Assembly: GCA_039588295.1 (NCBI GenBank)
Contig: JBDHAB010000009.1
Span: forward strand, 1 to 64,000
From: Gemmatimonadota bacterium
Lineage (GTDB): Bacteria; Gemmatimonadota; Gemmatimonadetes; Gemmatimonadales; GWC2-71-9
DNA: 64,000 bases
Direction: 5' to 3'
Below are positions 10,729 through 19,337 of the stretch, piece after piece. The translations under genes and the position numbers were made by a program. The stretch's first letter is position 1, and every line of letters starts with the position of its first letter. The notes under the pieces are model-generated. The model did not search any database, was not told where the DNA came from, and saw nothing but the letters and a program-made list of their open reading frames with translations.

Positions 10729-11379
10729 TCACCGCCTGTAACTCACCGAAATCCCCGACCGGCTCGAGCGGACGATCTCCGTCTCCAGGTTCGGTGTGCT
10801 CCTCAGTTCCTCTAGGAACTCGCGGATGCCGCGCATGCCGCGACCCGACACATTGTGCGCGGTGAAACACCCGCCAACCTCGAGCTTTGGCAGCAGAGAC
10901 CGGAAGTACTGCGCATACCAGTCTTTGTCCGCGTCTACGAACACGAAGTCGAACGGGCCCTCCAATGCCGGCACCAACTCGTGCGCGTCGGCAAGTCGAG
11001 CGTCGATGTAGTCGCTGAGCCCGGCCTCGTCGAAGTTCCGTCGTGCTTGGTTGTATCGCCGTTCGTCTATCTCGATCGTGATCAGCTTGCCACCGGTCTT
11101 GCTGAGCGCCCAGGCAATCCATATGGCCGAGTGCCCCGTTGACGTTCCGACTTCCAGGGCTCTCGTATAGCCGTGTTCGAGAATGAGATCGTACAACACG
11201 CGGCCATCGGATTCCGGGACGTTCATGTCCCGCCACGCACGCTGATTTGCCTCCAGGAAACGCGTCACCCGACCGTCGATGTCCTGGTGTCGGCGCCCCT
11301 CCTGCGCGGAACAGATCGACGCAGGAACACTGCCGCCCATGAGCACTGCGGCACAGCCAAGGATGATGCTCGTCTTCAT
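10729..11379 (-). CDS. O-methyltransferase (class I SAM, CCoAOMT/Methyltransf_3-like) with N-terminal signal-like sequence
   Basis: ALEVGTSTGHS, FDFVFVDADK, AHNV. Confidence 0.85.
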   Translation of the reverse strand: MKTSIILGCAAVLMGGSVPASICSAQEGRRHQDIDGRVTRFLEANQRAWRDMNVPESDGRVLYDLILEHGYTRALEVGTSTGHSAIWIAWALSKTGGKLITIEIDERRYNQARRNFDEAGLSDYIDARLADAHELVPALEGPFDFVFVDADKDWYAQYFRSLLPKLEVGGCFTAHNVSGRGMRGIREFLEELRSTPNLETEIVRSSRSGISVSYRR

Positions 11380-12672
11380 GGTCGTTCTCCGTTGTCTCCA
11401 ATGTTGCTGTCATGCCGTTCGGTGGGTGGGGTCTCGCCTGCGTGCGGCATCGTTGGCGCTTGGAATCGGCCGTGTCTCGACCGGCCGAACGCGAAGTAGG
11501 CCGGTACACCGAGGGCAACCGTCACTAGGGCGATGGACGACTCGACAGGTCGCTCCAGGTATGCAAGAACGAGTATCAGTGTGCTGACGGAGGCGAACAC
11601 GAGCGGCACCAGTGGATACGCGGGCATTCGGAACCCGTTGGCACCACCCGCACGCAACTTGAACACCCCGATCACTGTGAGAATTGGGAAAATCCCCAGG
11701 CAGAAGCCCATGTAGGTCAGGATCTGGTCGAACGTCCCTGACATGACCATCACGATCGCGATCAGGCACTGGAGCACGATCGACTTCGACGGCACACGGA
11801 AGATCGGATGTACTTCCGCCGCGATCTTGAAGAAGTATCCGTCCTGCGCCATCGCGTAATACACCCGCGGACCCAAGATGATGAGCGCGCTGATGGAGGA
11901 GAGCAGGGCCGAGGTAGAGGAGCATGACAACGCTGGTCCCCACCAGGAGCGAGCGCGGCAGGTTCCGACGTGGATCCCTAATTTCCGAGCCGATGTAGGC
12001 GGACGCGTTCCAGCCGCTATACGCGAACATGATCCACATCAGCGACAGGCCGATGGTCTTCCAGCCGGCGAGGCTGGTGTCGAAGCCGGTGCCGGCGGTG
12101 AAGTGTTCGAGGCTCCCTCTCCCCACCGAGAACCCGACCACGATCAGCGCGGCGATCAAAAGCACCTTCCCCACGGTCAGGTAGTTCTGAAGCTTCGAAC
12201 CGAACGCGATTCCTCTCAGGTGGACAAGCGTGAAAGCCGCAATCACGACGATCGCCATCGAACGTTTGAGAATCTCGGGATCGCCCCAGCCGAAGAGCCC
12301 CGGGAAGGCCCGGCTGAAGTACTCGCTGAAACCGAGCGACGATGCCGCCAACGGGGCGGAGAAGCCGACGAAGAACGACACCCAACCGCTCAGGAAACCG
12401 AATGCCGGATGGAACAACGTCGACAGGTAGACGTATTCGCCACCTGCGCGAGGCATCGCTGCCCCGAGCTCGCCGTAGCAGAGCGCGCCGCAGAGGGCCA
12501 ACACGCCGCCACCAACCCAGAGCAGCATCATGAGGGTGGGATTCCCCAGCTCGGCCATGAGGAGGCCCGACGTCGTGAAGATCCCGACCCCGATCATGCT
12601 GGCAACAACGAGATTGGCGGCGGGGAAGAGCCGGAGCGTTCTCGCGAGAACGTGCGGTTGGTTGTCGCTCAT
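11376..12672 (-). pseudogene. APC-family amino acid permease, frameshifted near 11909
   Basis: MIGVGIFTTSG, YGELGAAMPRAGGEY and YSGWNAS in one frame; GPRVYYAMAQDG and the C-terminus in another frame. Confidence 0.85.
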
Positions 12673-12951
12673 CCGGTCTCTCAATGGCCGCGTCACTGAA
12701 GGTGCCAATCCCACCGCAGCGGCTGCCTCCTCACGACGCGTAACCTCGGGATCGCGTGCGTTCGCCGGCGAGGGGTCATGGTACACCGAGTGGGACGCGA
12801 AAGATACCTCGACGTTAGGAACCGAGTGGCCGGTTCCACGTTGACGGGTACGGCGACGGGAACGGTAGCGAGGGTCGAAGAGTACTACAGCGGGAACGCG
12901 CTGTCCGTAGGTGACTGCCCACGTGGGCTCAGTGTCTCGGCGGGAGGTCGC

Positions 12952-13641
12952 ATGTTGCACCGAAGGATCCATGCCAGGCACGGCGGCCTCGTGCTCCTGG
13001 TCCTCACAGCCTTTCTTCCCCCGCTTCGTGCCGATGCGCAAATCGAGCGCACGCACCGCGACGAATGGCAGAAGGTGGACGAGATTTTCGCGGCCCTGGG
13101 GCTCGAAGAAGGCCACCACATCGCCGATATCGGAGCAGGCGGTGGGTTCCTGTCGGTGCGGCTCAGTGTGCGCGTGGGACCCGAAGGAAGAGTCTACGCC
13201 GTGGACATCGACGCGGACGTGCTCGAGGAGCTTCAGGAGACGGCCCGCAGCGAGTCGTTGGACAACATCGAGACGATCCTCGGTGAGACTGACGATCCCC
13301 GATTGCCCGAACGGTCATTGGATGCCGCGCTGATCGTCAATGCGTACCACGAGATGCGCGAATACGAAGGCATGCTCGCGGGCGTCCGGCGGGCGCTCCT
13401 GCCCGGCGGGCGGCTGGTGATCGTGGACAACCCGCCGCGCGACTCCACGCGGTCCCGCCTCAGCCAGATTGGGCAGCACGACATCGCCATCGGCCTGGTG
13501 GAACGAGACCTCGAGGGAGCTGGATTTCAGGTGGTGGAACGGGTACCGAGCTTCATCGACTGGGACCACGGCCGGCACCATCACCAAGAGTGGATGCTCG
13601 TTGCGGTTCTCCCGGACACTGCGGGAGCCGTTATTCGTTGA
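12952..13641 (+). CDS. Class I SAM-dependent methyltransferase with N-terminal signal-like sequence
   Basis: IADIGAGGG, VYAVDID, NAYHE, LLPGGRLVIVD. Confidence 0.85.
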   Translation: MLHRRIHARHGGLVLLVLTAFLPPLRADAQIERTHRDEWQKVDEIFAALGLEEGHHIADIGAGGGFLSVRLSVRVGPEGRVYAVDIDADVLEELQETARSESLDNIETILGETDDPRLPERSLDAALIVNAYHEMREYEGMLAGVRRALLPGGRLVIVDNPPRDSTRSRLSQIGQHDIAIGLVERDLEGAGFQVVERVPSFIDWDHGRHHHQEWMLVAVLPDTAGAVIR

Positions 13642-15043: not shown

Positions 15044-15266
15044 GCTTCCATCCCCCGCGATGGCGTGATCCGGGTCCGTCGGCAGTCGGCCTGCCGCAGT
15101 CCGGGCTGACCAAGGCAACCTGGGGCGGCGTGACAGCGGTCGCAAGCGGTGGACCCAGCGCCCCGAACTCAATCGCAGTCGAGACGATCAGGCTTGCCTG
15201 GTCTGCTCCCCGTATTCCGGACTGCTAGACGTGAGACTATGCTAACCCGAGAGTTGGGGAGGTTCT

Positions 15267-15539
15267 ATGGGGCGGCAGAGTCGGTTCCACGTTGAGCAGA
15301 TCGTGAAGATCCTGCGTGAGTACGAGACGAGTGGGCTGCCCGTGAGCACGTTCTTACGGCGCTACGGGGTATCGCGGGAGACGTTCTACCGCTGGCGGCG
15401 CAAGTATGGGGGCCTGACGGAGAGTGATGCATCACGGCTGAAGCGGCTCGAGCGGGAGAATGCCCGGTTGAAGATGCTCGTGGCGGAGCGGGATCTCGAG
15501 GTGGAGGTGTTGCGGGAGATCACGCGAAAAAAATCGTGA
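15267..15539 (+). CDS. IS3 transposase OrfA (HTH)
   Basis: YGVSRETFYRWRRKYGG...RLKRLERENARLK; A7 slippery run at 15527-15533. Confidence 0.92.
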   Translation: MGRQSRFHVEQIVKILREYETSGLPVSTFLRRYGVSRETFYRWRRKYGGLTESDASRLKRLERENARLKMLVAERDLEVEVLREITRKKS

Positions 15540-16414
15540 GCGCGCCGGCCAGACGGGCGCTGGTCGGGATGCTGAGGCAGCGCGGCATCGCGGTCCAGCG
15601 GGCCTGCGTGCTGGTGTCGGTGGCCCGTTCCGCCGTGGGCTATGTGTCGCGGCAGGCGGCGAAGGATGCGCCGTTGCAGCGTCTGCTCCGCCGGTTTGCC
15701 CAGCGGCATCCGCGGCATGGGTATCGGCGCGCCTGGGTATGGCTGCGGCGGAAGGGTCATCGGGTGAATCGCAAGCGGGTGTACCGGCTCTGGTGCCAAG
15801 CCGGCCTGGCGTTGCCGCGGCGTCGGGCGGCCCGGCGGCGCTGGCGCGGCCCGCGGGTGGATCCGGTGGCCCGCGCCCCGACGGCGGTGTGGGCGTGCGA
15901 CATCCTCCACACGCGCTGTGGGCCTGGGCAGGTGGTGCGGTGTTTGTCGGTGGTGGACGAGTACACGCGCGAGTGTTTGGCGATCGAGGTGGCGAGCTCC
16001 CTGCCGGCAGACCGTGTCGTGGGGTGTCTGGCGCGCCTGGTGGAGCAGCATGGGGCGCCGCAGTACCTGCGCACGGACAATGGCACGGAGTTTCTGGCGC
16101 GCCGCACGCAGCAGTGGCTACGCCACCACGGCATTCAGGCAGCGCGGATCGAGCCCGGTAAGCCGTGGCAGAATGGGGTGGTGGAGAGCTTTCACAGTCG
16201 GTTGCGCGACGAGTGTGTGGATCGCGAGTGGTTTGGCAGTGTGGCCGAGGCGGCGGTCATCATCGAGGCGTATCGGCAGAGCTACAACGCGACCCGGCCG
16301 CACAGCAGTCTGGGCTACCGCACCCCCGCCGAGGTACGGTCGGAACATGACACGATGGTAGACACCGGCGTTCCGCAGCCAGGACGCCAGGAAATGGTCA
16401 GTGTCTCACGCTAG
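15536..16414 (+). CDS. IS3 transposase OrfB (DDE integrase core)
   Basis: WACD, VVDEYTRECL, TDNGTEF, PGKPWQNGVVESF, YNATRPHSSLGY. Confidence 0.95.
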   Translation: MSAPARRALVGMLRQRGIAVQRACVLVSVARSAVGYVSRQAAKDAPLQRLLRRFAQRHPRHGYRRAWVWLRRKGHRVNRKRVYRLWCQAGLALPRRRAARRRWRGPRVDPVARAPTAVWACDILHTRCGPGQVVRCLSVVDEYTRECLAIEVASSLPADRVVGCLARLVEQHGAPQYLRTDNGTEFLARRTQQWLRHHGIQAARIEPGKPWQNGVVESFHSRLRDECVDREWFGSVAEAAVIIEAYRQSYNATRPHSSLGYRTPAEVRSEHDTMVDTGVPQPGRQEMVSVSR

Positions 16415-16581
16415 TTCGTCCCAAGAATGGGGAGCACCTGATGCCGGCAACACAAATGTCCCATCAGCGGCACCCGAAGTCCCAACATGGGCCTACCCTC
16501 AGCGCCGGTCCGGGTCCATCGTGTACATGGACGTTTCGGCTGCTTCACCGCGTCGTGCCGTAACGAGGCAAGGAGGAATCG

Positions 16582-16842
16582 TTGGCAGACCGCCAGGTGA
16601 CCCATACGCGGAAGGACGTTGACGGGGACATCGTGGTGCTGTGCAACCCGCTGAGCTCTTGGATCCTGCGGGCGAAGGACGGCGCCCTGGAAGATATCGA
16701 GCACGGTGTCCACACCTACTATGTCGAGAGCAACGGCAGCCGTGTGTATGTGCAGGCGGTGGACTGGCTGGTCGGCAAGCGGCTCGAGACCACCACGGAT
16801 CCGACATCGGCGAGCAACCTGCGCAACCTACCGGACGGCTAG
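16582..16842 (+). CDS. DUF3892-like small protein
   Basis: 86 aa; DIEHGVHTYYV and terminal TTDPTSASNLRNLP pattern; RBS AGGAGG before TTG. Confidence 0.7.
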   Translation: MADRQVTHTRKDVDGDIVVLCNPLSSWILRAKDGALEDIEHGVHTYYVESNGSRVYVQAVDWLVGKRLETTTDPTSASNLRNLPDG

Positions 16843-16971: not shown

Positions 16972-18252
16972 ATGGAGTTTTTCTCAGACTCGCAGTCATC
17001 AGACGTTCCGGCGTCACTGCATGCGGACTTCCTCGACGCGACCCGAAGGGGCGTTCGACCGGACCAGGGTCGGCTCGCGGGCTTTCTCGTCCTGCGGCTC
17101 GTCGATGCTTCGGGGGAGTCGGGTCGAGCGGGCGCGGCCGAGGCCCTCAAGTATCAGCTCAACGCCACGGCGGAATCCGTTGCCGCACTCCCGAAGACTG
17201 CGGAGCGCGGGTGGCTGGACTCCATCGTCGCGGGGGTCGGGGACTTTCTTGGATCACGAGGCCGCCAGCCTCTGTTGAGTGGGCTCGTGGCCTATGCCGA
17301 CTGGCTGGAACAGGAACTGCACCTCGATGAGTCGGTTGACGTCCTGCGGACGGCCCAGCGGGCCCTTGGGGTGAGCGTGGAGCCGTCGGCGGTCTCGGTG
17401 TACCTCGCGCTGGGTCGGTCACTAAGGCTCCTGGGCCGGCTCCACGAATCGAAGGCGGCGTACGAACGAGCCGAAGGCGCCGCGCGTGAGTTGGGCGACG
17501 ACCATGGGCGGCTTCTCAGCACGATCGGTCACGCGTATACGCTGCAGAAGACCGGAAACTTGCCAGCGTCCGAGCACATGCTGCGGTCGGCGCTCGCGCA
17601 AGGGGTGGCCCTTGGCGACCGCGACGCCGAGGCGCGGGCGTGCCATGACCTCGCCATCTGTGTGTTTCACATGGGGCGGCCGGTCGAAGCGGCGCCACTC
17701 GCGTTCCGGGCATTCCGACTCTATGACCAGCCGCAGAAACGGACTCGTGCCCTGAGCGACACTGGGCAGATTCTCAAGGAGACGGGTCAGTACGATGCTG
17801 CCGGCAAAGCGCTACGGGCGGCCCTGGAGCGGGAGCCACCGCCCGAAGTGCGGGTCCGAATCCTCGTGGAGTTGCTCGATCTGCACGCGCTCATGGAGAA
17901 CGAGATCGCGTTCGGCCGGCTCCGCAAAGAGATCGAAGTGGAATACGATCGGATTCCCATCGACGAGAGGGTCGACTTCGAGCTCAAGTTGGGTCGGGGG
18001 CTGGCGCGGTTCGGCCGCCTGCAACAGGCCCGTGCCCATCTGGACGAGGCGTTGCAGCTCGCCGAGCAGCACGGGCTGCCGGAGTGGCTGTTTCGCGCGG
18101 AGGCCTTACTGGCGAAACTGGAGGACGCGCAGGGCGCCGAGAGCTGCCGAGCCCCGTCACCGGGAACTCAGAGTTCGACGGATCTCGACGCCACGATCGC
18201 CGACTTGGAAGCGCTGAGCGTCGGCGAATTGGCGCACGACGGACAACGCTGA
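16972..18252 (+). CDS. Cytoplasmic TPR-repeat protein (candidate peptide receptor)
   Basis: Tandem TPR helices; no signal peptide or catalytic motif recognised. Confidence 0.75.
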   Translation: MEFFSDSQSSDVPASLHADFLDATRRGVRPDQGRLAGFLVLRLVDASGESGRAGAAEALKYQLNATAESVAALPKTAERGWLDSIVAGVGDFLGSRGRQPLLSGLVAYADWLEQELHLDESVDVLRTAQRALGVSVEPSAVSVYLALGRSLRLLGRLHESKAAYERAEGAARELGDDHGRLLSTIGHAYTLQKTGNLPASEHMLRSALAQGVALGDRDAEARACHDLAICVFHMGRPVEAAPLAFRAFRLYDQPQKRTRALSDTGQILKETGQYDAAGKALRAALEREPPPEVRVRILVELLDLHALMENEIAFGRLRKEIEVEYDRIPIDERVDFELKLGRGLARFGRLQQARAHLDEALQLAEQHGLPEWLFRAEALLAKLEDAQGAESCRAPSPGTQSSTDLDATIADLEALSVGELAHDGQR

Positions 18253-18259
18253 CGGGGGC

Positions 18260-18421
18260 CTAGGTGCCTGAGCCCTGGGAGCCTGTATCGTCTCGCTGAG
18301 GGGCCTCGATTTCGCTGTCGGGGTTATCGAGCGCTGGTGCCAATGGGTCGGCGCAGCCCGCGATCGACAGGGTGACGGCGGCGATCGCTGCAAGGAGTGG
18401 AAGCCGGGTGCGTCGCGACAT
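18260..18421 (-). CDS. 53-aa small lipopeptide, missing from the ORF track
   Basis: AGGAGG 5 nt before ATG; MSRRTRLPLLAAIAAVTLSIAGC-ADPLAPALDNPDSEIEAPQRDDTGSQGSGT; lipobox IAGC. Confidence 0.8.
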   Translation of the reverse strand: MSRRTRLPLLAAIAAVTLSIAGCADPLAPALDNPDSEIEAPQRDDTGSQGSGT

Positions 18422-18533
18422 TGGGACCTCCTGTGGTGGGGTGTGGGTGAGTCTGTCTGACTAAAGGTTGGGAGGTCGTGCGCGGTCGGGATAGACCCCG
18501 ATTGGGGCATCGAACGTCCGTTCTGGGACATTT

Positions 18534-19337
18534 ATGCTTGTTTTGGGTGCCGTTCACCCCACGCTGACGCGGCAACTGCGACAGGCCGCGAGCTACCGGT
18601 ACACCATCGTGTCGGTACAGGCCTGGAGTGCGGTCGTGACCACGATCCGGCAGCGGCCGGTCGAGATCGCGGTGGTGGACCCGGCCCTGGAGGGACCGGT
18701 GAGGGCGCGGGAGATCGAGCGGCTCCGGGTCCTGTTCCCGTCACTTCCGCTGGTGTTGTACTCTCGGCTGACGCCCGACCTCCCACAGGTGCTCTTGCGG
18801 CTCGGACAATTGGGGGTGCGGACGGTGCTCCTTGCGGGGCACGAGGATCACCCAGCGAGAATGCGGGAAGCGCTCACAGAGGAGGGGACCCGCATCCTGT
18901 CGCGCCAGTTGCTGGGGGAGATGGGGGACCTGCTGGAGGATTTGCCCGGCGAGCTGCGGTGGGTCATCGAGGCGATCGTGCGGGCCCCCGCCGAATTCCA
19001 AACGGTGCAGGAACTGGCGGATCGTGCTCGTATGGATCGGCGCACCTGTGCCCGCTGGTTTGCCCGGGTGAACCTGCCGCCACCCAGCACCATGCTGACG
19101 GTCCTGCGGGCGCTGTACGCGCATCGCCTGCTGCAAGATCCGGGGTTCACGGTGGAAGACGTTGCGGCGCGTTTGGGGTATCTGCGCGCCCGCTCCCTCA
19201 CGCGCAGCATCAAGGAGATATTCGGCATGACCCCGGCCGAAATCCGCCTGTCGCTCTCCGCCGATGATGCCCTTTCCCTCGTACGCCGGCGGTTCTTCAA
19301 AGCGAGAGGATCTGAGCGGGATCTGCGGATCAGTTGA
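18534..19337 (+). CDS. AraC-family regulator with N-terminal receiver-like domain
   Basis: EIAVVDP...FPSLPLVLYS (REC-like); C-terminal TVEDVAARLGY...IFGMTP (AraC HTH). Confidence 0.85.
   Translation: MLVLGAVHPTLTRQLRQAASYRYTIVSVQAWSAVVTTIRQRPVEIAVVDPALEGPVRAREIERLRVLFPSLPLVLYSRLTPDLPQVLLRLGQLGVRTVLLAGHEDHPARMREALTEEGTRILSRQLLGEMGDLLEDLPGELRWVIEAIVRAPAEFQTVQELADRARMDRRTCARWFARVNLPPPSTMLTVLRALYAHRLLQDPGFTVEDVAARLGYLRARSLTRSIKEIFGMTPAEIRLSLSADDALSLVRRRFFKARGSERDLRIS

Follow-up and report, generated by a model that had tools for sequence, protein, structure and literature searches.

Can a bacterium with two membranes communicate through small exported peptides, as Gram-positive bacteria do? The question is raised by a locus in a 64,000-nucleotide stretch of a Gemmatimonadota genome (GCA_039588295.1, contig JBDHAB010000009.1, positions 1 to 64,000; hereafter the window), where genes for a tetratricopeptide repeat (TPR) protein, a 53-residue lipopeptide and an AraC-type regulator lie side by side (coordinates in the table). 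Judged from sequence, the three look like a conserved Gemmatimonadota unit that resembles Gram-positive peptide cell-to-cell signaling, and they probably form a peptide autoinduction circuit that works like Rap-Phr of Bacillus. Cytoplasmic peptide-pheromone receptors are portrayed as a Bacillota trait in two accounts (PMC10075063; PMC9765709), and literature searches, within the portions of text that they reached, gave no description of such a cassette.

The small gene on which this reading depends is well supported. The preliminary description had pointed to a minus-strand open reading frame (ORF) with an AGGAGG and an IAGC lipobox, and this is confirmed by the sequence, by recurrence at homologous loci and by the pattern of selection; Pfam and NCBIfam searches with it gave no match. 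Its convergence with the TPR gene (stops 7 nt apart) and the divergent orientation of the AraC gene (112 nt between) are also borne out in the window. Among 176 loci fetched (175 with a TPR match, 165 unique), 159 were evaluable, that is, with a TPR score of at least 100 bits, a closed frame and at least 165 nt downstream. An adjacent small lipopeptide at TPR homologues had been named beforehand as a check, and a convergent lipobox ORF of 39-88 residues was found at 153 of these 159 loci. When applied to this genome, the identical detection rule fires at 88 of 1928 long ORFs, a count that contains the cassette, so the linkage is not due to chance. Among 20 further, weaker loci, 14 have a peptide, including 7/7 from other families of the class. 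The lipobox, judged by a PROSITE-style rule, is kept in 152 of the 153 precursors. Over 21 disjoint pairs of equal-length homologues, the ratio of nonsynonymous to synonymous substitution rates (dN/dS) is 0.21 (0.19 in the mature part), and of 573 differences 337 fall on the third position of a codon; this indicates purifying selection.

The linkage includes the regulator. TPR, peptide and AraC genes are all present at 146 of the 154 loci whose flanks are long enough; of the six TPR genes that have no peptide, five are also without AraC, and the sixth sits between two AraC genes. The TPR and AraC trees (40 loci) have 12 supported splits in common, and 2 of 20 TPR splits are in conflict. Within this genome, the TPR and peptide genes are each single copy. 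A profile built from 38 TPR homologues (the tallies include the unpublished genome G118, otherwise unused) matches 152 of 301 genomes of the order (family f1 78/136, f2 73/137 and f3 0/27) and 108 of 251 across the phylum, with just 8/82 outside these families. Some absences are assembly breaks, given that the AraC orthologue is found at contig ends in G003, G026 and G095. No phage or viral matches were found, and all 17 named loci belong to Gemmatimonadota/Gemmatimonadales. Since these hosts lie outside the RRNPPA range, which is the Bacillota and the mobile elements that they carry, and since both common descent and peptide binding are putative, the cassette is not classed as an RRNPPA member.

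Several loci depart from the common layout. TPR homologues with neither peptide nor AraC (L017, L026, L095, L144, L157, L192, L193 and L195) are possible eavesdroppers; on the L095 contig, a strong operator of the type described below is divergent from the orphan TPR gene and upstream of a Cas GSU0053 gene (L222). The variant layouts L027, L194 and L188 comprise a peptide-less TPR gene flanked on both sides by AraC homologues, and TPR genes in tandem that have AraC upstream of them. In 60 of 155 loci (e.g., L067:3040-3465), the gene of a GspH/FimT-like minor pilin stands upstream of TPR in divergent orientation; the cassette of the window is without it, and its flanks are also rearranged relative to those of congeners.

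The signal itself is predicted to lie in the C-terminal tail of the precursor. The GxxGSG tail first proposed as the mature signal is not supported as a family motif, as only 11 of the 153 peptides have it within their final 10 residues. Tail conservation holds in another sense: the mature part is under purifying selection and the last 7-8 residues are a duplicated unit, but their sequences are diverse. The core, defined as the final seven residues or those seven that precede the last Cys, follows [DGEV]-x-[QSNA]-[GN]-S-[NG]-[TN] and has 61 distinct variants in 76 of the 136 complete cassettes, those with a clear register (the other 60 were excluded). Internal repeats, searched from mature residue 8 onward, occur in 12 of the 153 precursors, and in all 12 the repeated unit is the terminal 7-9 residues, in up to six copies (SIQGSGT is present in two copies, for instance, and SGYNGSGT in six); three more distant precursors contain 7-mers in three, five and three copies, and the units repeated among distant members include HTIGSGN, DYVNPLG and DFVNPHV. 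These terminal repeats match the repeated mature peptides described for RRNPPA propeptides (PMC9765709). Two additional Cys, mostly 7-8 residues apart, are present in 107/153 precursors, and none in 46, this peptide among them. Several precursors have one copy of the repeat unit inside the Cys loop and one at the free C-terminus, and therefore the looped and linear forms of the tail are linked. For the peptide of the window, the predicted signal is GSQGSGT or TGSQGSGT.

Paralogous cassettes have different tails in 15/15 genomes, and this property bears on a first alternative, namely that the system is a cell-autonomous or contact-range sensor, in which the tail of an anchored lipopeptide is re-imported by the producing or touching cell and reports envelope proteolysis or lipoprotein trafficking, not density. 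The nearly universal lipobox would suit such a sensor, since a plain signal peptidase I signal is the route of 92% of the RRNPPA propeptides with a predicted route (PMC9765709), and so would the surface and envelope genes among the predicted targets. However, diverse and paralogue-distinct tails fit channel-specific communication better than a self-monitor, and tail multiplication fits dose amplification; the sensor is considered unlikely.

The TPR protein, for its part, has the architecture of a candidate receptor. In its AlphaFold2 model (pLDDT 93), a three-helix bundle (residues 32-93; helices 32-48, 55-71 and 77-93) is followed by eight hairpins (99-388), a number within the 5-9 superhelix-forming hairpins of RRNPPA receptors, and a C-terminal helix. 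The protein has a Pfam TPR match and neither a helix-turn-helix (HTH) nor a DNA-binding domain. Its earlier designation as "all-TPR" is right for the repeats but not for residues 18-93, which the model shows as a bundle of helices that are not TPRs. A start at the ATG further upstream (16870; 460 residues) is disfavored, as the alignment of homologues begins near residue 10 of the 426-residue form. In a fold search, Rap structures align over model residues 30-370, N-terminal bundle included; the root mean square deviation from RapH (4-370) and the Rap protein of pLS20 (9-363) is 5.5-6.7, with the bundle covered only within the whole-protein alignment. These fold matches tie with APPBP2, LGN and MalT, and in the sequence search RapJ ranked behind eukaryotic TPR proteins, with an E value of only 0.008. 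The likeness to Rap proteins, at 10-12% identity, is one of fold and layout, and common descent with them and with NprR, PlcR, Rgg, PrgX and AimR is putative.

That likeness to Rap-Phr as described in PMC9765709 (found in Bacillus, plasmid pLS20 and phage phi105, and forming the RRNPPA branch without a DNA-binding domain) comprises a cytoplasmic TPR protein with what looks like a Rap-type three-helix bundle, an adjacent small exported propeptide with a short, sometimes repeated C-terminal unit, the existence of orphan receptors and, here by prediction, action on a separate response-regulator-type protein. The differences are the diderm host, the signal peptidase II (SPII) precursor in nearly all members, the convergent layout, the frequent Cys loop and a dedicated, cis-encoded pseudo-receiver-AraC protein predicted to activate the peptide promoter. 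The receptors of PlcR-PapR and NprR-NprX (Bacillus cereus group) have their own HTH, whereas here sensing and DNA binding would be split over two proteins.

Within the predicted groove, R152, N196, R259 and D263 are near-invariant among TPR homologues and adjoin hypervariable positions. The relation between peptide and TPR protein is predicted from sequence and fold, and receptor-peptide covariation, one of the checks proposed earlier, is weak. This leaves room for an account with no receptor-ligand relation, in which the peptide is an AraC-activated small lipoprotein (a surface marker, an antimicrobial or a loop like that of a ribosomally synthesized and post-translationally modified peptide, RiPP) and the TPR protein serves as chaperone, immunity factor or cofactor of AraC; the frequent Cys loop and a weak, sub-cutoff match to the RiPP-associated TPR protein HaaT (E 3e-5) point in that direction. 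Nevertheless, a neighborhood survey of the TPR loci saw no conserved modifying enzymes, the cytoplasmic TPR protein and the exported peptide are gained or lost together, and the repeat unit has the size of a pheromone. The account is quite improbable.

The next component is the regulator. Its AlphaFold2 model (pLDDT 93) consists of a (beta/alpha)5 receiver and an AraC domain, with Foldseek matches to FixJ, RcsB and StyR. The receiver-like N-terminus noted in the preliminary description is therefore correct as a fold, and D49 (end of beta3) is present in 138/141 and T/S77 (after beta4) in 120/141, but the acidic pair of beta1 and the conserved Lys are missing (positions 6-9 read A-V-P-x and 104-107 D-D-x-P). 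Because acidic pair and Lys are not kept, phosphorylation is unlikely and a protein partner is a plausible input.

A canonical single-domain receiver, with its DD, D, T and KP signature intact, follows AraC as a fourth gene in 108 of 132 cassettes, so the module is not limited to three genes family-wide, as had been supposed. This receiver, together with RapH-Spo0F among the top fold matches of the TPR protein, invites a Rap-Spo0F logic, according to which the TPR protein, under control of the peptide, dephosphorylates or binds the receiver, and AraC drives peptide expression only. Yet the receiver gene is absent from 24/132 cassettes, including this one and those of three congeners, the cassette-receiver query found no orthologue elsewhere in this genome (best 91 bits, below the lowest cassette receiver, 98), and the linkage of AraC is tighter than that of the receiver, which makes such a logic very unlikely. 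Two distant receiver-AraC paralogues stand alone in G000:C1:185735-186508 and C4:9688-10383, with no operator, TPR or peptide nearby; similar-scoring paralogues also exist in genomes without a detected cassette.

The spacer between the peptide and AraC genes contains a conserved direct repeat. With the spacing left free, the best pair of half-sites is 21 bp apart in 129/141 cassettes versus 8/141 shuffles. In 122/124 cassettes, a hexamer resembling a -10 element is found at a distance of 39-45 nt from the proximal half-site, and this offset places the proximal half-site over the -35. Tandem direct half-sites with the proximal one over the -35 are the geometry of class II AraC activators. The araI1-I2 sites of the AraC/XylS class share with this operator the 21-bp distance, the position over the -35 and the divergent regulator gene; the difference is that, where AraC has a cupin that binds sugar, the N-terminal domain here is a degenerate receiver, and its input is probably a protein partner. 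AraC thus appears to control the peptide promoter. Of the Rap-Phr-like module originally envisaged, the Rap-like fold, the linkage and this apparent control find support at sequence level, while the GxxGSG motif and the three-gene limit do not.

The predicted operator is also found elsewhere. With a matrix built without this genus, this genome has 9 sites that score above 14 bits, against 1 and 0 for two shuffled controls. From other genomes, 40 matches were picked by eye among the 150 matches listed; after 8 without a matrix hit, 2 contig-broken cassettes and 1 low-scoring match were dropped, 29 loci gave 30 sites, to which 9 secondary sites of this genome were added (eight above 14 bits, one at 11-13). 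The -10 pattern is at the right offset in 34 of these 39 secondary sites, versus 0-8 at twelve other offsets, a test that is independent of the matrix. Of the f1 genomes, 56 of the 78 with TPR have a strict operator pattern, as do 4 of the 58 without; the site of the cassette itself accounts for many of the positives, and related genomes are not independent. The reversed-pattern control had 0 matches.

The predicted regulon is small and is not conserved between genomes. Here it includes a DUF3892-like ORF (scored 0.91 against DUF3892 clusters in the ESM Atlas, which is no more than a lead, and with no Pfam match), a lipoprotein of the thermolysin family accompanied by an exosortase, a PEMT-type methyltransferase, DUF7508 together with an ECF-type sigma factor, and a lipoprotein of unknown kind; three operator sites of this genome have no clear target. 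Predicted targets elsewhere are a TonB receptor with YfiR, histidine kinases, receivers, a type IV pilin, GmrSD, HsdM, DUF4062, phospholipase D, a subtilase, a Cas GSU0053 gene (third in line) and a sigma-54 activator. A family assignment is lacking for 12 of the 32 predicted-target proteins scanned. In 6/145 loci the operator is 88-114 nt upstream of TPR on the same strand; that of the window is at -500. An 88-bp operator-promoter module is duplicated with 94% identity (G000:C53:2151-2238 and C65:5707-5794) and followed by unrelated DNA, which suggests that the promoter moves as a unit. At site 4160 of G000:C4 (L243:2795-2878), the operator precedes a 28-residue single-transmembrane ORF with a strong ribosome-binding site (RBS).

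The autoinduction circuit favored here has a computed basis, which consists of gene reality, linkage, repeat unit, folds, operator geometry and distribution, and a part that is inferred, namely binding, processing and transport. The precursor would be exported by Sec and lipidated at Cys23, as its lipobox suggests, and a protease would free the last 7-8 residues, here (T)GSQGSGT. A candidate for this processing enzyme is the lipoprotein protease of the thermolysin family (M4) that, with an exosortase, follows an operator in G000:C33:27470-29886 (L241). The peptide would return to the cytoplasm via an oligopeptide transporter and bind the concave TPR groove. This genome encodes LspA, 3 family-5 peptide-binding proteins and 3 OPT transporters, and a family-5 oligopeptide-binding protein lies directly upstream of TPR, co-oriented, in 13/155 loci, all of family f2 (5 of the 13 were scanned and all 5 confirmed). 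The TPR protein would then act on the kinase-independent pseudo-receiver-AraC through direct contact, and its likeliest role is that of an anti-activator which the peptide releases; this polarity is only mildly preferred, on account of the Rap analogy and the operators upstream of some TPR genes. AraC on the 21-bp tandem repeats over the -35 would activate the peptide gene, a positive feedback, in some cases the TPR gene, a negative one, and a small group of surface, defense and signaling genes that differs from genome to genome, and it would probably also block its own start.

A broader proposal, somewhat more doubtful than not, is that of a lineage-wide, multi-channel system in a diderm phylum with an origin separate from RRNPP: a tethered, often disulfide-looped heptapeptide that crosses two membranes, a cytoplasmic TPR reader, the release of a kinase-free pseudo-receiver AraC, and autoinduction joined to a fast-turning regulon (defense genes of the restriction and CRISPR-associated kinds, and pilin, protease and two-component genes). 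If true, a conserved equivalent in about half of the Gemmatimonadales genomes sampled would bring peptide communication to a phylum with two membranes, and with it the problem of how a peptide is freed from a lipoprotein and taken back into the cell. The predicted signals, operator and target promoters are directly testable with synthetic peptides and a reporter, for which culture of the organism is not needed.

Table. Features of the cassette and its surroundings in the window, and loci with an upstream binding protein.
Feature	Position	Strand	Remarks
IS3-family element	15204-16436		orfA 15267-15539, orfB 15536-16414, rve_3; inverted repeats 15204-15222 / 16418-16436
Second operator copy	16457..16494	+	position weight matrix score 15.0; -10 CATCGT 16517-16522; upstream of 86-aa ORF and TPR gene
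86-aa ORF	16582..16842	+	AGGAGG; DUF3892-like; predicted regulon member, not conserved in cassette
TPR gene	16972..18252	+	426 aa, cytoplasmic helical-repeat protein; candidate peptide receptor / anti-activator
Peptide ORF	18260..18421	-	53 aa, MSRRTRLPLLAAIAAVTLSIAGC...GSQGSGT; Sec/SPII signal, lipobox IAG-C23, acidic linker, candidate signal tail (T)GSQGSGT
Shine-Dalgarno AGGAGG of peptide gene	18427..18432	-	5 nt before ATG; RBS-like element in 139/153 homologues
Predicted -10 of peptide promoter, CAACCT	18465..18470	-	NANNNT at offset in 122/124 cassettes; T conserved 92%
Tandem direct-repeat operator	18493..18530	-	21-bp period, TGTCCCAGAA.../TGCCCCAATC...; proximal half over -35, distal half 3 nt from AraC ATG
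AraC regulator	18534..19337	+	267-aa pseudo-receiver-AraC; HTH_18 E 1e-15
Loci with upstream family-5 binding protein	L020, L021, L025, L130, L135, L139-L143, L145, L146, L149		

Other observations concern the surroundings of the cassette. The IS3-family element ends 20 nt upstream of the second operator, and the assembly has no other full-length copy of it. An apparent amino-acid permease extends over two overlapping frames of the window (11410-13119 and 11376-11930, minus strand) and is possibly frameshifted. Finally, a 35-40-bp intergenic repeat is present in dozens of near-identical copies (G000:C53 at about 1735-1775, C4, C5, C7, C13, C44, C73, C99 and others).
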